Made by a program: the position numbers and the translations under genes. The notes below the pieces were generated by a model. The model was given only the letters and a program-made list of their open reading frames with translations. It searched no databases and was not told the origin of the DNA. This document shows positions 19,254 to 59,099 of a stretch of DNA of 64,000 bases, piece after piece. Source of the DNA: Chloropicon primus (lineage: Eukaryota); contig CP060755.1 of assembly GCA_023205875.1 (NCBI GenBank), positions 868,001 to 932,000 of the forward strand, read 5' to 3'. Numbering within the stretch: the stretch's first letter is position 1; every line of letters starts with the position of its first letter.

Positions 19254-19354
19254 GCCTTAGTAGCTCAGTTGGTAGTCAGCGTTACCTTCGTACAGAATCT
19301 TATTTCTCGTATAGGAAAAGGTAAAGGTCCGGAGTTCGATTCTCCGCTGAGGCA
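19254..19354 (+). tRNA. trnT-CGU: tRNA-Thr(CGU) with 26-nt intron (19293-19318)
   Basis: Acceptor stem GCCTTAG/CTGAGGC, anticodon stem TTACC/GGTAA, anticodon CGT at 19289-91, T-arm CGGAG-TTCGATT-CTCCG, T7 Pol III terminator. Confidence 0.9.
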
Positions 19355-19758
19355 TTTTTTTGGATTCTATGAGCGACGTTAATTGTACAAGGATCACGAC
19401 GAGATCGTTGATCGTAACGGCTGAGGACGGCGACGAGGACGGCGAGGGCGAACGAGGACGAGGCGAGAAGAGAAACGAACGAGTACGGGAGCGCGCGGAG
19501 GAGGAGAAGAGAGAGGCGGAGGACAGGAAGGTCGTCGTCGTCGTCTCTTGCTCTTTCGAAAGAGCCGTCGCGCGAAAGAAACGACCCAGTGTTGAGCATC
19601 TGACGACGACACGAAACACGAAAAAGAGAGAGGCAGAAAGAGATCGAGGAGTAGATCACCGAGGAGGGGAGGCGACGACGAGGGCGGGAGTTTGTGCCGG
19701 AGGTTTCTCTCGAGCGGTAGACTAGCGGGAGGAGCGTCTCTCGTCTCTCGTTCGGACG

Positions 19759-20660
19759 ATGAACATCGAGCCGGACGAGGTTTGGGTGGAGCGCGTCGTG
19801 GCCCTGTTGGCGTCCTCGGAAGGAGAAGGGTTGCAGAGTGCGGAGTTGGAACGGAAGCTCCAGGAGGAGCACTTAGTTACCCCCGAGTTTGTCGTGAACG
19901 TGTTGGCGAGGGTGGTGAACCAGTTGCTGGCGGAGCACAAGATCCAGCTCCTGGAGGGCGGCGCCGCGGATGGTTCCGGGAGGAGGAAAGTGTTTTACAA
20001 GCTGAACAGGCAGGAGGAGCAGAGGAAGCTCGAGGGGTTGGGGAGGGAGGACCTGCTGGTGTACCAGATCATCCAAAGTTCGAGCGATATGGGGATCTGG
20101 ACCAAGGACTTGAAGACGAAGGCCGGGCTGCAGCAGCCGCAGGTCGCGAAGATCCTCAAGTTCCTCGAGCAGAGGAAGCTGATCAAGTCGATCAAGTGGG
20201 TGACGAACAGGAACAGGAAGGTGTACATGGCGTTTGACGTCCAGCCCAGCAAGGAGATCACGGGGGGGGCCTGGTACACGAACAACGAGCTGGACGAGGA
20301 GATGATAGGGGCGGCGATGAAGATATGCCTCAAGAGCGTCCGGGAGAAGGGGGGCAGGGTCAGCTTTCGCGAGGTCGCGGCAGAAGTGAAGAAAAGCGAG
20401 TTGTTCCGCACGGCCCTGGACGAGGACGAGGTCAGGAGCATCCTGAAGCTCCTGGTGTACGACGGCAAGCTGGAGCAATGCGACGAGGGGTGCAGTGACG
20501 GCGGGGTGTACTTCAAGCTCTCCAAGGTGAAGCCCCCCGCGAGCCTGCCGGAGCACCTCGTGCCCCTCCTGCAGATGGGCTGGCACACCAGGAGCGGGGA
20601 AGGGTCCAGGGAAAGCGAGGAGGCCTTGGCGGAGGGCGAGTACTTCTTCTTCAAGGGAGG
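19759..20660 (+). CDS. POLR3F: RNA polymerase III subunit RPC34/RPC6; no stop codon, ORF continues into the ankyrin gene
   Basis: MGIWTKDLK, LEQRKLIKSIK, KVYMAFDVQPSKEITGGAWY and LVYDGKLE motifs. Confidence 0.88.
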
Positions 20661-20703
20661 GGGCACCACACACACACACACACACACACAGAGAGAAGTG
20701 CTC

Positions 20704-22647
20704 ATGGAGGAGACGAGAGAGAGAGAGAGGCAGAGGAGGAAGGCCAAGCATGCCTTCGAAGTGCTGCCCGAGTGGGCGTGGCTCCTGGTCATGAAGAAGC
20801 TCAGCTCCTACGACCGGATCGCTTTCGCCTTGACCTGCAGGGCGTTCCTCGAGGCGGTGACGACGACGACGACGGCAACGGCGAACCCTGAGCTGAAGAA
20901 GAAGGTTGCTCTGAAGACGGACCTAGAGACAGAGAGGTTGTTCAAGGAGATGCCTTGCTTCAGTTTGGGTTGGTTCCAGTGGGTGTCTCGGTCGTTCAAA
21001 AGGAAGAAGAAAACACCGGGCAAGTTGAGAGATAGCAAGCCCTCCAGCCACTTGGGAAAGTACTACGACCACTTGTACGACTCTGACCTGATGTTTCTCG
21101 CCGCTTTCCAGGGCAGCAAGAAGGTGATGCAGTGGTTGGTGAGTCAAGGGATCCCTTTGAATCTCAATCGCGAGTATCATGGAGTGGTAGCAGCTACAGG
21201 AGCTGCTGCAGGAGGTCACATTGAGTTGCTGGAATGGTTGAGGAGCGAGGGGTGCGGATTTCATGAGAGGACTTGTGCTGCTGCAGCTGAAGGAGGCCAC
21301 CTTGATGTTCTGCAGTGGGCTCGAAGCCAGGACCCGCCTTGCCCTTGGGACGCGGGGACTTGTAGGAGGGCAGCTATGGGAGGTCACCTTGATGTTCTGC
21401 AGTGGGCTCGAAGCCAGGACCCGCCTTGCCCTTGGGACGCGGGGACTTGTTTTGGGGCAGCTGGAGGAGGTCACCTTGATATTCTGCAGTGGGCTCGAAG
21501 CCAAGACCCGCCTTGTCCCTGGGGCGCGACTACTTGTGCTTTAGCAGCTGAAGGAGGTCACCTTGATGTTCTGCAGTGGGCTCGAAGCCAGGACCCGCCT
21601 TGCCCTTGGGATGCGGGGACTTGTGGGATGGCAGCTATGGGAGGTCACATTGATGTTCTGCAGTGGGCTCGAAGCCAGGACCCGCCTTGCCCTTGGGACT
21701 TGATGACTTGTGCTGCTGCAGCTAAATATGGTCACCTTGATGTCCTGCAGTGGCTTCGAAGCCAGGACCCGCCTTGTGATTGGGACTGGGTAACTTGTGC
21801 TGCTGCAGCTGAAGGAGGCCACCTTGATGTTCTGCGGTGGGCTCGAAGCCAGCACCCGCCTTGCCCTTGGAACAAGCAGACTTGTTTGGGGGCAGCTTAT
21901 GCGGGTCACCTTGATGTCATGCAGTGGCTTCGAAGCCAGGACCCGCCTTGCCTTTGGGACAAGGAGACTTGTTCTAATGCAGCTGGAGGAGGTCACGTTG
22001 ATGTCCTGCAGTGGCTTCGAAGCCAGGACCCGCCTTGCCCTTGGAACAAGCAGACTTGTTTTGGGGCAGCTATGAAAGGTCACCTTGGTGTTCTGCAGTG
22101 GGCTCGAAGCCAGGACCCGCCTTGTGATTGGACCTGGGAGACTTGTTGGTACGCAGCTCAATTTGGTCACCTCGATGTCCTGCAGTGGCTTCGAAGCCAG
22201 GACCCGCCTTGCCCTTGGAACTCGCAGACTTGTGCTGCTGCAGCTATGAAAGGTCACCTTGATGTTCTGCAGTGGGCTCGAAGCCAGGACCTGCCATGTG
22301 ATTGGAACGAGGTGACTTGTGAATTGGCAGCTGAAGGAGGTCACCTTGATGTTCTGCAGTGGGCTCGAAGCCAGGACCCGCCTTGCCCTTGGAACGAGAA
22401 GACTTGTGAATTGGCAGCTCGAGGAGGTCACCTTCACGTTCTGCAGTGGCTTACAAGCCAGGACCCGCCTTGCTCTTGGGATCCAGTGGCATGCCTTGAT
22501 GCGGCTGTCGCGAACAGTCACCACGAAACGTACAATTGGATCATGAATCAGAGGGACGCCTTTGATGCCAACGACATATTGAGATATATGGGGCGTAAAA
22601 TCCTCAGCGAAGAGTCTGAAGAAGAGTATTACGGATATTACGACTAA
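20704..22647 (+). CDS. F-box-like N-terminus + ankyrin-repeat protein (PCPW-type repeats)
   Basis: LPEWAWLLVMKKLSSYDRIAFALTCRAF F-box-like motif; 14 x 29-aa repeats WxxxTCxxAAxxGHLDVLQWARSQDPPCP. Confidence 0.88.
   Translation: MEETRERERQRRKAKHAFEVLPEWAWLLVMKKLSSYDRIAFALTCRAFLEAVTTTTTATANPELKKKVALKTDLETERLFKEMPCFSLGWFQWVSRSFKRKKKTPGKLRDSKPSSHLGKYYDHLYDSDLMFLAAFQGSKKVMQWLVSQGIPLNLNREYHGVVAATGAAAGGHIELLEWLRSEGCGFHERTCAAAAEGGHLDVLQWARSQDPPCPWDAGTCRRAAMGGHLDVLQWARSQDPPCPWDAGTCFGAAGGGHLDILQWARSQDPPCPWGATTCALAAEGGHLDVLQWARSQDPPCPWDAGTCGMAAMGGHIDVLQWARSQDPPCPWDLMTCAAAAKYGHLDVLQWLRSQDPPCDWDWVTCAAAAEGGHLDVLRWARSQHPPCPWNKQTCLGAAYAGHLDVMQWLRSQDPPCLWDKETCSNAAGGGHVDVLQWLRSQDPPCPWNKQTCFGAAMKGHLGVLQWARSQDPPCDWTWETCWYAAQFGHLDVLQWLRSQDPPCPWNSQTCAAAAMKGHLDVLQWARSQDLPCDWNEVTCELAAEGGHLDVLQWARSQDPPCPWNEKTCELAARGGHLHVLQWLTSQDPPCSWDPVACLDAAVANSHHETYNWIMNQRDAFDANDILRYMGRKILSEESEEEYYGYYD
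21262..22480 (+). repeat. Coding tandem array, 14 x 87 bp
   Basis: 87-nt period (CTTGATGTTC at 21301 and 21388); ACTTGT and GCAGCT invariant in all 14 units. Confidence 0.97.
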
Positions 22648-22831
22648 CGTTGGACCTCTAACCATGGCAATCACTGAGCTTCTATCGAACACCTGATGCA
22701 ATGAAACTTAGCTTTGCTTTGATCTTTCTTTTCGCCATTCCTTGCTTCTTTCATTCGCCATCTCCTCGACGATGTGGACATCATCGCGAGGCATTTCTCT
22801 GCGTAACGGGCGAGCACGAGGGCGAACCAGG

Positions 22832-22834
<3 letters not shown>

Positions 22835-22866
<32 letters not shown>

Positions 22867-22938
22867 AGGAGCGGAGAGCAAGGGAATGCGTTGGATGTGC
22901 TCCCAAAGGAAATGTGGCTTTTGGTGTTGAAGAAGCTG
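22835..22938 (+). pseudogene. 5' half of a second F-box-ankyrin paralogue
   Basis: (GA)n then NALDVLPKEMWLLVLKKL, matching (GA)n then HAFEVLPEWAWLLVMKKL at about 20715-20800. Confidence 0.75.
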
Positions 22939-22943
22939 ATCCT

Positions 22944-25103
22944 ATGGCTGCTGGGTTCGGTCGGCGGCGGCGCGGGGCAGGGGACAACATGGAGGGGGAA
23001 GCGTGTCACAGGAAAAGGCGGGGCGCTGTGCGGTGCCTGAGGGTGACGACGGCGCTGGTCTTCACCTACCTCTGCGCGGGCGAGCTCTTGCCTCTTCCTC
23101 GCTCTAGCGCCAAGGGACTCCTGCGGGACTGGGCTGCTCAGCAGGCCGTAATCGTAGCCACCCTCTCCGTCCTGGCCATTCTGCTCGCCAGCACGGGATG
23201 CTCGCAGCACGCCGGTTTTTTCGTTCGCCTGCGCACAGCCGAGCCGCTGCTTGCCGCGCTGAACGGAGCCCCCCTCGCGGCAGCAGCTGCGGCGTCTCTG
23301 TGGGGCAGCCGCCGCTCGGACAACTGCCAGGACGACGAACCCGGGTGCGGCTCCGTGAGCATGCTTCTTGACGCCGTCGGCCTGATCAGCGCGCGCCTCG
23401 CCCGACTGGACCTTGGCGTCTGCCTTCTCCTCGCCGGGCGGGGCGAATCAGCGTGGGTTTTCGGAGCCTCCGGCGGCGAGCTGGGGTACTCGGAGGCGAT
23501 TCCGCTGCACCGAGCGAGCGGCTGGTGGTGCGCGAGGCAGTCAGCGCTGCACTCCATCGCGTATCTGCTCTTCTACCTCAGCCGAGGCGGGACGAGCTCG
23601 CTGTGGCTCGACTGCTTCCCCTTCGGAAGCACGCCCGGCTCCCTCAACACGCTTGGGTTGGTGAACTTTATCGGGATTGTTGCTGCTCTCGTGTTGCTGC
23701 TGCCGCTGACGCTCTCTGCGCTGCCCCATGTCAGGAAGAAGTGGTACCAGGCATTCCAACGCCTCCACCTGCCAGCCGCCATGGTGTTCGTCTCGTGTTG
23801 CGCGCTGCACGATCTTCCCATCCTACTATTCGCCGTGCCTGGGCTCGCTGGGTGGTACCTCGGGCGGCAGGACGGCTCCGCGCTGCGCAATAAGGTGCTG
23901 CCTGCCAAAGCCCGGCTGCTCCCAGGCACGTCGGGGACGTGGGTCGAGCTGACCATAGACGCTGCGACAGTGCCGAAACCAATAACCAGGGTACCGCGCG
24001 AGGAGTGGGTGTCCGTGAGTGTGGCGCCGCTCGGGACGGAGTCGCACCCGCTCTCCGTGACCGTCTCGGCCACTGGAAGCACGGAGCTCTCGATGATTGT
24101 TTCCTCGAACATCGGCAACTGGACTAGGGCGCTTTGCAGCCTCGCTTCAACGCCAGGAGGTGACAGATTCGATGTCCAGGTGTCTGGACCGTACCCATAT
24201 GGCGGAGGCTGCTGCTGCTGGTTGTCAGGGTCAGAGCAGGACACCCACGGCCGTGAAGAAACCGCGCTGCTGCTCCTGGCCGGTGGCACTGGGATCACCG
24301 GATGGCTGCCTGTGCTGGCTCAGGCTGGCGGTGCCCACCGCGACCCGTGCCACCTGGTGTGGTTTGTCCAGAAAGAAGCGGACTACCTCGCGCTCGCCAA
24401 TCGATTGCCCGCGCCCTCCACCGGGGTCAAGGTGACCGTCTTTGTCACCAAGGCTGACGGCTCCGCTCTGTCTGGCAAGCTCGGCAAGCTTTTTGTTGGG
24501 AGGGCGCGGGGCGGGGCTGCTGTGGTGAGCGGGGTGGGCAATGGAGAGACCGCACAGGCCAGGGCTCACCTACATCAAGGCGGCAATTGGTGGATGAAGG
24601 TGGCATTGTTGGCGTCGACACTCGTGGGCTTGGCGGTGACATCCTGGGGCTGGACCTACCATCATCGAATTTGGGGTTCATCGACGACGCTGGCTAAATT
24701 CTTCGTAGCGCAACGGTGCCTGCCGGTGGTGCTTGTTTTTCTCGCCATCACTGGCGTTTTGCGGGCTGTGTCCTGGGTAGCGGTGAGGCATTATAATGCC
24801 GTTCGCACTGGGGGCCATCAAGAAACCGTTGATGCCTCAGATCTGCAGCCACTTCGGCAGGATAGCCTCATCGAGGGGGCCGAGGGGCTGGCGGAAGCTG
24901 GAGGGCATCACGTGCACGCGGCACGTCCAGACGTGAGCACGCTGGTGCGCACAGCAGTCACAGAATGGGCCACACATCGCTTGGTCGTGGAGGCGCGCGG
25001 GCCACCATCGCTGGTGGAAGCGGCTCGAAAGGCTGTAGAGGTTGAACAGGCGAAGTGTCCCTGCGGAAGGCTCAAGTTTCACGGCAGCGACTGGAGGTGG
25101 TAG
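22944..25103 (+). CDS. Ferric reductase / NOX-family flavocytochrome, intronless
   Basis: Two His pairs (HRASG...ALH; RLHLP...ALH), HPLSV FAD motif, VSGPY, LLLAGGTGITG NAD(P)H motif, multiple TM helices. Confidence 0.85.
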   Translation: MAAGFGRRRRGAGDNMEGEACHRKRRGAVRCLRVTTALVFTYLCAGELLPLPRSSAKGLLRDWAAQQAVIVATLSVLAILLASTGCSQHAGFFVRLRTAEPLLAALNGAPLAAAAAASLWGSRRSDNCQDDEPGCGSVSMLLDAVGLISARLARLDLGVCLLLAGRGESAWVFGASGGELGYSEAIPLHRASGWWCARQSALHSIAYLLFYLSRGGTSSLWLDCFPFGSTPGSLNTLGLVNFIGIVAALVLLLPLTLSALPHVRKKWYQAFQRLHLPAAMVFVSCCALHDLPILLFAVPGLAGWYLGRQDGSALRNKVLPAKARLLPGTSGTWVELTIDAATVPKPITRVPREEWVSVSVAPLGTESHPLSVTVSATGSTELSMIVSSNIGNWTRALCSLASTPGGDRFDVQVSGPYPYGGGCCCWLSGSEQDTHGREETALLLLAGGTGITGWLPVLAQAGGAHRDPCHLVWFVQKEADYLALANRLPAPSTGVKVTVFVTKADGSALSGKLGKLFVGRARGGAAVVSGVGNGETAQARAHLHQGGNWWMKVALLASTLVGLAVTSWGWTYHHRIWGSSTTLAKFFVAQRCLPVVLVFLAITGVLRAVSWVAVRHYNAVRTGGHQETVDASDLQPLRQDSLIEGAEGLAEAGGHHVHAARPDVSTLVRTAVTEWATHRLVVEARGPPSLVEAARKAVEVEQAKCPCGRLKFHGSDWRW

Positions 25104-25106
25104 GCG

Positions 25107-25172
25107 AGCTCCTACCACTGGATCGTTTTTAAGTTGACCTGCAAGGCGTTCCTCGAGGCGGTGAGGACGATG
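25107..25172 (+). pseudogene. 3' half of the interrupted F-box motif
   Basis: SSYHWIVFKLTCKAFLEAVRT matches SSYDRIAFALTCRAFLEAVTT (about 20803-20865) in both DNA and protein. Confidence 0.8.
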
Positions 25173-25177
25173 AAGAT

Positions 25178-25540
25178 CGAGCTGGACGAGGAGATAATAG
25201 AGGTGGCGTGCAGGGTATGCCTCAAATTCGTCCGGCAGAAGCGGTGCAGGGTCAGCGTTCACGATGTCGCGGCAGAACTGGAGAAATGCCAGTTGTTCCA
25301 CACGGGCCTGGACGAGGACGAGGTCAGGAGCCTCCTGATGCTCCTGGTGGAAACGGCAAGCTGGATCAATGCGACGGGGGGATGTACTTCCAGCTCTCCA
25401 GGGTGAAGCCCCCCGCGAGCCTGCCGGAGCACCTCGTGCCCTTCTTGCAGATGGGCTGGCACACCAGGAGCGGGGAAGGGTCCAGGGAAAGCGAGGAGGC
25501 CTTGGCGGAGGGCGAGTACCTCTTCTTCAAGGGAACCTGA
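25178..25540 (+). pseudogene. Frameshifted duplicate of the RPC34 3' end
   Basis: Paralogous to about 20287-20658; 1-nt deletion near 25350; last about 130 bp nearly identical; ends FFKGT-stop. Confidence 0.88.
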
Positions 25541-25545
25541 CGAAA

Positions 25546-25580
<35 letters not shown>

Positions 25581-27829: not shown

Positions 27830-27939
27830 GCCTTCGTAGCTCAGTTGGGAGAGCGTGGCACTTGTATGCACTTGTACGCGTACTATACCTTGTACGCGAA
27901 GTGATGCCAAGGTCTGTGGTTCGATTCCGCACGGAGGCA
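27830..27939 (+). tRNA. trnT-UGU: tRNA-Thr(UGU) with 37-nt intron (27867-27903)
   Basis: Acceptor stem GCCTTCG/CGGAGGC, D-arm GCTC/GAGC, anticodon stem TGGCA/TGCCA, anticodon TGT at 27863-65, TTCGATT loop, TTTT terminator. Confidence 0.92.
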
Positions 27940-29014: not shown

Positions 29015-29128
29015 CAGTGGGCTCGAAGCCAGGACCCGCCTTGCCGTTGGGACCCAATTGAATGCATGGTATGGGCGGAGAGCAGGAAAGACCAGCGCGT
29101 CATCGAATGGATCGATGCCAATTCTTAA
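29015..29128 (+). pseudogene. Ankyrin-array terminal remnant
   Basis: CAGTGGGCTCGAAGCCAGGACCCGCCTTGCC identical to the array scaffold, followed by a C-cap-like WDPIEC...IEWI and a stop. Confidence 0.88.
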
Positions 29129-58704: not shown

Positions 58705-58787
58705 GGTCGGAGGACGTTGACTGCTCGAGGGAGATTGTCCTAGGGATCAGATTACCAGGAGTGGGACCGAGGCCAAGGGACTTGGAC

Positions 58788-58818
<31 letters not shown>

Positions 58819-59099
58819 AAAGGTGAAACCTTGCTGGGGTTGTGTTGGGGCGTGTATTTGAAGGAAACGCACGGGGGAGGCTGAGAGGGCACCAAGGGTC
58901 GGAGGACGTTGACTGCTCGAGGGAGATTGTCCTAGGGATCAGAGTACCAGGAGTGGGACCGAGGCCAAGGGACTTGGACCGAGGACGAGGACGGGGACGA
59001 GGACGAGGACGGGGACAAAGGTGAAACCTTACTGGGGTTGTGTTGGGGCGCGTATTTGAAGGAAACGCACGGGGGAGGCTGAGAGGGCACCAAGGGTCG
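58705..59099. repeat. Tandem duplication, units of 192 and 198 bp
   Basis: GGTCG restarts at 58705, 58897 and 59095; units differ by a few SNPs and one extra 6-nt GAGGAC-type unit. Confidence 0.93.

Follow-up and report, generated by a model that had tools for sequence, protein, structure and literature searches.

A complete metal-reductase gene, likely from another marine eukaryote, inside the split F-box of a dead ankyrin-family copy in Chloropicon primus

We analysed a stretch of 64,000 nucleotides from the genome of the marine green alga Chloropicon primus (contig CP060755.1, positions 868,001 to 932,000 of the forward strand), hereafter the window, whose positions are numbered from its first letter. 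In the window, a complete metal-reductase gene, A3770_02p14880, lies precisely within the F-box of a dead member of the F-box-ankyrin family. We propose that a coding sequence from another marine eukaryote was end-joined into the F-box of the second of the tandem F-box-ankyrin units found here, and that it is likely transcribed from the promoter of that unit. We give this reading a probability of about 0.55.

The reductase gene occupies positions 22944 to 25103 of the plus strand. It is a single open frame of 719 codons without introns, from the ATG at 22944 to the TAG at 25101-25103. In unit 2, the left F-box half ends at 22938 and the right half starts at 25107, and the insert between them (22939-25106) measures 2168 bases. 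The intact F-box-ankyrin paralogue of unit 1 (20704..22647, plus strand), delineated by its open reading frame, Pfam and homologue search, provides the reference for the empty motif. The two halves join, with no target codon lost, into the contiguous motif of this paralogue at 20748-20862. The right half is identical to it at 51 of 60 bases (33 for the next-best place in the window) and the left half at 38 of 54 (next-best 30), in both cases far above the window background. The left half and the (GA)n tract before it (22835..22938, plus strand) have lost their own start codon. Three out-of-frame ATGs (22886, 22895 and 22912) are found in this F-box-derived leader, and one of them overlaps the reductase start. 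The right half (25107..25176, plus strand; 84% identical to 20803-20872) has lost the ankyrin repeats. The limits of the two halves and of the reductase frame agree with the original prediction, made from the letters alone, which had placed an intronless reductase precisely inside an F-box motif.

The junctions carry a trace of the target. At the insertion site, paralogue contigs read GCTGAGCCCCTAC and unit 1 reads GCTCAGCTCCTAC. Damaged copies of this 12-base target word are found on both sides of the insert. The left copy (22935..22944, plus strand) reads GCTGATCCTA; it is 2 bases short and ends on the A of the reductase ATG. The right copy (25104..25114, plus strand) reads GCGAGCTCCTA, is 1 base short and directly follows the stop codon. 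Thus, the five letters TCCTA, first seen as a degenerate target-site duplication or microhomology, belong to a longer word present on both sides. At positions inside the insert, a comparable likeness to the target word is reached with a frequency of 0.006 for the left copy, 0.22 for the right copy and 0.0013 for both jointly, in a null test that was designed post hoc, after the junctions had been seen. On the target-word reading, the foreign piece would be 22945-25103; it would end on its stop codon, and the initial A of its ATG would come from the target. The first 15 codons of the reductase are not conserved and a second ATG is found at 22989, so that the precision of the 5' end may be partly accidental, whereas that of the 3' end is not. 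Two indels lie within the 22 junction bases, whereas the F-box halves are ungapped, which suggests errors during end-joining.

Independent contigs confirm the junctions. In each of two DNA runs, X1 and X2, one contig covers 22876-25162 with zero differences and spans both junctions, at a depth that resembles that of the neighbouring single-copy DNA. Both junctions are also spanned by one contig (22876-25431) of the RNA-like run X3, and the right junction by run X5 (24859-25431) and by the marine metagenome X7 (24960-25216). At 25217 and 27002 the letters of X2, X3 and X5 are not those of the window, so these runs do not merely repeat the window's own haplotype. In addition, the reductase protein is recorded on 2 assembly contigs and a metagenome fragment of 189 residues is identical to its C-terminus. 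X3, X5 and X6 are typed as RNA by the guess of the tool only, and no run that contains the sequence is recorded as RNA. X5 behaves as RNA, its contig stopping at 27362, where the spliced and unspliced forms of the V-ATPase E gene diverge (depth 105 vs 18), and the coverage of X3 follows gene limits. The joint of an empty site, 22938 to 25107, is not among the 3 joints listed for four runs nor among the best 15 of 54 joints, which does not in itself show its absence. An assembly chimera or a chance likeness could be suspected in a repeat-rich region where the junction evidence comes from contigs rather than long reads. However, independent contigs cross both junctions and the motif matches stand far above background, and for practical purposes an assembly artefact is refuted as the source of the insertion.

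In the PMC6731263 supplement, A3770_02p14880 is a hypothetical protein labelled as ferric-chelate reductase. Pfam recognises Ferric_reduct (PF01794, above cut-off) and NAD_binding_6 (PF08030). The four heme histidines (His189, His203, His275 and His289) are present and conserved in the alignment, an FAD motif HPLS is found at residue 368 and the NADPH-site motif GGTG at 447. The reductase profile matches DUOX1 and NOX2, and the predicted model (mean pLDDT 69) matches DUOX/NOX structures with an E-value of 1.5e-14. These heme, FAD and NADPH domains place the predicted protein in the FRE/NOX ferric-reductase-domain superfamily. It would work as an NADPH-to-heme reductase in the membrane, with chelated metal as substrate. 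Translation may in fact begin at the second ATG (22989), as similarity to the homologues sets in near residue 28. Arg685 replaces the conserved cysteine of the CGP motif of the NADPH site, a cysteine found in 61 of the 66 ungapped rows of a 70-row alignment. We take residue 685 to be the same position as Cys537 of NOX2. Cys537Arg is a listed NOX2 disease variant with a normal amount of protein (PMC9674757). The change in the CGP motif says more about activity than about descent. The conserved columns do not support a general decay of the protein, which departs at 7 of 105 of them, within the range of the 70 rows. Judging from these features, the reductase may be weak or fading, with a 2.16-kb frame that is intact and also found in wild populations.

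The reductase likely comes from another marine eukaryote. It has no match in 13 other green genomes (PMC6731263 supplement table). The top four of 87 homologues are unnamed marine sequences, 45-47% identical, and the named homologues are the haptophytes Prymnesium and Emiliania, the parmalean Triparma and two COSAG single-cell records. The family member of C. roscoffensis (one named cluster record) is only 37% identical to the C. primus protein. Three trees were built, one with FastTree (82 rows) and two with IQ-TREE (34 and 24 rows chosen by hand). In all three, the C. roscoffensis member belongs to a well-supported clade that excludes the C. primus protein, with support values of 100/99 and 100/98 in the IQ-TREE trees. 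The AGR share of arginine codons, 0.27, is the lowest of 21 open reading frames of the window (pooled host counts 409:185; Fisher P 7e-9). Homologues and the green-genome table support the proposal, already made from the letters, of a foreign-gene capture into an F-box-ankyrin locus, and trees and codon use lean the same way. The lack of introns carries little weight in this respect, because 22 of 28 homologous loci (28 examined of 39 fetched, partly redundant) are likewise intron-free and open in one frame. Scans of viral_contigs for a possible viral origin turned up relatives of neither the reductase nor the F-box region. The gene is physically joined to host DNA; it is absent from the wider green lineage as sampled by the 13 genomes, yet present in the sister species. 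There is good support for a transfer into Chloropicon at some time, and a later, separate transfer into C. primus is favoured without being demonstrated.

In its relatives, the reductase has a partner. Among the 22 metagenome loci that extend upstream by 1 kb or more, 16 (17 when all 39 are counted) have a gene of the SBP_bac_5/NikA-like class of solute-binding proteins (SBP) head-to-head with the reductase-family gene, the two matches being 0.2-1.4 kb apart. The paired loci (L002-L007, L009, L012-L015, L019-L021, L023, L031 and L039) represent about nine marine lineages at 90% identity, with a gene G+C of 48-77%. The best solved-structure match of the partner is NikA (E 1e-55). A multicopper oxidase was ruled out as the partner, which is SBP_bac_5. 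A CobW/COG0523 gene is also found in L012 and L014. Locus L023 is assigned to C. roscoffensis on the basis of about 99% identity. It contains both genes of the pair, the SBP gene being interrupted by introns, and gives no match to the ankyrin family. In that SBP gene (L023:1340-3193) the introns are short and two of them are alike in sequence (introner-like). Elsewhere, a fragment of a D5-type primase-helicase near the SBP-reductase pair (L006:1-1266) hints at a virus-like or mobile neighbour, and a bHLH gene matching the iron-related IRO3 domain is found downstream of the reductase in L019 (6890-7648). At the C. primus locus the NikA-like partner is missing, with no SBP match within the 64-kb window. 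C. primus has a nikA-like gene, A3770_11p62790, on chromosome 11; it has no green-algal match and no reductase is annotated beside it.

This layout resembles that of FRE2/FBP1 of Phaeodactylum tricornutum. In this siderophore-uptake pair, a NOX-type ferric reductase gene is divergent to a solute-binding-protein gene akin to bacterial receptors (PMC6876252), an arrangement that the relatives share. However, the partner belongs to the FhuD/DesE class in the diatom and to the NikA/SBP_bac_5 class in the relatives. The C. primus locus lacks the divergent partner and has an F-box flank at that place. A further parallel is with two zinc/cobalt-responsive proteins of diatoms, the COG0523 protein ZCRP-A and the membrane-tethered, NikA/CntA-like ZCRP-B (PMC9010474), since both classes adjoin the reductase family in metagenome loci. 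The link to ZCRP-B is by class; within the literature searched, no reductase linked to ZCRP-B was found. By analogy with these systems, the relatives' gene pair is likely a metal-uptake pair, and its composition points to an uptake system for Ni, Co, Zn or Fe chelates that depends on reduction. We put forward the NikA-like pair as a candidate undescribed metal-uptake module.

Several observations weigh against a separate capture from a foreign donor. The approximately unbiased (AU) test does not reject a single Chloropicon clade (p 0.115 with 34 rows, p 0.053 with 24 rows) and the C. roscoffensis branch is long. No donor is identified, and the C. primus protein has no supported sister or small clade in the trees. 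The C. roscoffensis copy is also AGR-low (0.34), so that part of the codon signal belongs to the family as a whole. In overall codon fit, a host pfkB-like gene falls below the reductase, which is second lowest of the non-ankyrin genes. The reductase is not among the listed C. primus-specific orthogroups. These points leave room for a relocation, in which an older reductase of Chloropicon itself, orthologous to that of C. roscoffensis, would have moved from a nikA-like locus into the F-box copy, fast evolution now hiding the orthology. The reductase-SBP pair of C. roscoffensis in L023 and the nikA-like gene retained by C. primus, with no reductase annotated beside it, would fit such a move, as would the fact that A3770_02p14880 is the only 'ferric' row among the annotation rows up to chromosome 11. 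Yet an identity of 37% is below the 45-47% to unrelated marine sequences, and it is found between species at 77.9% average nucleotide identity (PMC12301720); three trees also separate the two proteins. We regard relocation as possible but rather unlikely. A finding that would count against the original prediction, relatives with the reductase at this site but no F-box flanks, is borne out only in part: the C. roscoffensis member does lack them, at what may be another site.

Two other accounts concern how the piece came to lie in the F-box. The first is a processed retrocopy, which was one option of the original prediction. It would have arisen by target-primed reverse transcription, and the 12-base word would be a decayed target-site duplication. 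Processed retrocopies with recruited promoters consist of coding sequence only, have a short flanking duplication and use the promoter of the landing site. A target duplication of about 12 bases has a length typical of non-LTR insertion. The coding sequence here is likewise alone and intronless, and two reverse-transcriptase-labelled genes are listed in an ankyrin orthogroup of C. roscoffensis. In contrast with known retrocopies, the insert has neither poly(A) nor 3' UTR, the target word directly following the TAG, and no parent gene is found among the annotation rows up to chromosome 11. Moreover, most homologous loci are equally intron-free, and two indels in 22 junction bases, against ungapped F-box halves, resemble repair errors more than slow decay. 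A retrocopy is thus improbable. The second account is a chimera: two distinct F-box-ankyrin paralogues would have been joined in the repair of a break and the reductase trapped between them, so that a single empty site never existed. In its favour, the family is large, with 64 members listed in two strains and several of them in tandem runs. The left half is nearer to P0089, a paralogue at another C. primus locus (16 of 25 residues, vs 12 of 25 for unit 1), and the right half nearer to the neighbour, unit 1 (14 of 19, vs 11 of 19 for P0089). This also counts against our proposal, since the halves may derive from different paralogues. The RPC34 remnant that follows unit 2 is itself mosaic, 85% then 97% identical to the neighbour. 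However, the difference between 38/54 and 51/60 in identity to the neighbour is not significant (P 0.07), and gene conversion within the family also gives mosaics; a single mosaic paralogue may account for the two halves. In addition, the halves meet without loss of a codon and the target word is found on both sides, and we consider a chimera improbable.

We thus favour the capture of a foreign coding sequence by unit 2. The piece would have been joined into a break in the F-box of this unit, killing it. It would have entered as DNA during repair of the break by end-joining, leaving the imperfect 12-base duplication. It would have arrived without flanking DNA of its own, the NikA-like partner and the shared promoter being left behind, and may owe its survival to the landing site, which gave it a promoter and a 3' end. 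Transcription would run from the head of the unit through the reductase into the RPC34 remnant, which would serve as 3' UTR. The product perhaps acts with the unlinked nikA-like protein of chromosome 11, and Cys685Arg and the three upstream ATGs may have weakened it.

Reuse of the unit's promoter, as first suggested from the letters, is plausible. The head motifs CGTAACG (22802) and GAGGGCGAAC (22818) of unit 2 (22802..22827, plus strand) form a putative promoter or start region just upstream of the F-box flank. Unit 1 is headed by the same motifs (CGTAACG at 19413, GAGGGCGAAC at 19444). On the plus strand of the window GAGGGCGAAC occurs only at these two places, and CGTAACG is found 4 times in the window. 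When the three head regions were aligned locally, the result did not exceed the null (fractions 0.06-0.83), and the shared part consists of the exact motifs only. The RNA-like contig of X3 starts in the F-box flank and runs through the reductase into the RPC34 pseudogene, which agrees with this part of the suggestion. The contigs give neither a start site nor a level, and X3 is RNA by the guess of the tool and by its gene-bounded cover; both points count against the proposal.

The region around the insertion is composed of units of the same kind. Unit 1 lies downstream of an intron-bearing tRNA-Leu(CAA) gene (19254..19354, plus strand; ARAGORN with intron search), 59 bases upstream of the first head motif at 19413. 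The high-copy 5' region of the family follows (19413..19714, plus strand), recognised by depth, joints and head motifs. Its summed depth is 7733, vs 127 on the reductase, so that the part at 19451-19701 stands at about 60 times the reductase value. In other copies, joints lead from 19571-19585 to 20807-20830, so that the 5' region meets the F-box with other letters between and without RPC34. In unit 1, a duplicate RPC34-like gene, A3770_02p14870 (19759..20658, plus strand; PF05158), lies in between, in frame with the F-box-ankyrin gene. Together they form one open frame of 962 residues (19759-22647, plus strand) across (CA)n/(GA)n tracts. Over the region searched, the encoded protein matches a record named Chloropicon primus at 100% identity. 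The C-terminus of the RPC34-like part has no cysteine cluster. The primary RPC34 is A3770_02p13500 (PMC6731263 supplement), and more Rpc34-labelled copies are listed on chromosome 19. As other copies join the head to the F-box without RPC34 and the primary gene is elsewhere, we infer that the RPC34-like gene of unit 1 is itself a captured duplicate. The search for longer RPC34 fusions gave only the protein of the locus itself, which is weak evidence.

The right flank of the insertion continues into an RPC34 pseudogene (25165..25534, plus strand) that was missed in the original prediction. Its start region (93% identical to 19754-19780) is joined to the C-terminal half (86% identical to 20280-20658); it is frameshifted, with deletions of 1 and 15 bases. 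Against the neighbour it is identical at 147 of 173 positions (85%), then at 131 of 135 (97%). The last 135 bases (25400-25534) would be either the product of a recent gene conversion or a separately repeated piece, and extra contigs map there. A (GA)n/(GACA)n tract (25542..25580, plus strand) closes the rearranged block. We considered a circle of 19754-20865 integrating at the (GA)n tract. The order of the pieces fits, but the left flank, with its own head motifs and lower identity, does not. A tandem array explains the flanks better. In the two strains, the 64 genes of the family form orthogroup OG0000003, several of them in tandem runs (PMC12301720 supplement), and four Rpc34-labelled genes are listed within an ankyrin orthogroup of C. 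roscoffensis. At P0089, an annotated protein combines an F-box with a legumain part and reads through out-of-frame ankyrin repeats. This fusion may be an annotation artefact or other cargo beside an ankyrin unit, and we did not count it as cargo.

ARAGORN without intron search finds no tRNA gene in the window; with intron search it finds two, Leu-CAA (19254-19354) and Thr-TGT (27830-27939). Both are followed by the same order: CGTAACG after 59 or 71 bases, then a piece of an RNA polymerase gene, then ankyrin-family DNA. For Thr-TGT, the piece is a degraded C-terminus of RPA1, the largest subunit of RNA polymerase I (PF04998; 28113-28796, minus strand), and it adjoins an ankyrin-repeat remnant (29015-29053). 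With two cases, noticed after the fact, the tRNA-linked placement of the units is a lead and no more. Pack-MULE and Helitron elements are gene-capturing repeats, and Dictyostelium TRE3 and Ty3 are elements targeted to tRNA genes. The units resemble them in being dispersed, in carrying pieces of host RPC34 and RPA1 and in sitting near tRNA genes. They differ from them in that no terminal inverted repeats, transposase or reverse transcriptase are seen near the locus: no long inverted match was found at its flanks and no transposase or reverse transcriptase Pfam family in 10 nearby open reading frames. Mobility of the units is thus putative. In a broader and doubtful view, the F-box-ankyrin units of Chloropicon would be landing pads, anchored at tRNA genes, that capture genes and provide the cargo with a promoter. 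The cargo would include RPC34 and RPA1 pieces and a foreign start-to-stop frame, itself half of a receptor-reductase(-CobW) module that moves between unrelated marine picoeukaryotes and whose reductase Chloropicon would have acquired twice. Farther along the window, a tandem duplication of about 195 bases with 95% identity is found at 58705-59099.

A ferric reductase is not mentioned in the main text of either C. primus genome paper, and the literature searched, which included few subscription papers, gave nothing on the insertion or on the NikA-like reductase pair. Promoter capture and receptor-reductase pairs are known, and the insertion and the pair described here are variants of each. Few probable gene transfers between eukaryotes have a landing site that is legible base by base; this locus is one of them, with a putatively borrowed promoter and a lost partner both visible. 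The NikA-like pair parallels FBP1/FRE2 of diatoms and gives the ZCRP-B-like proteins a candidate partner. For the compact, repeat-poor genome of this alga, capture by an F-box-ankyrin unit would offer a testable route by which foreign coding sequences may be taken up and expressed.

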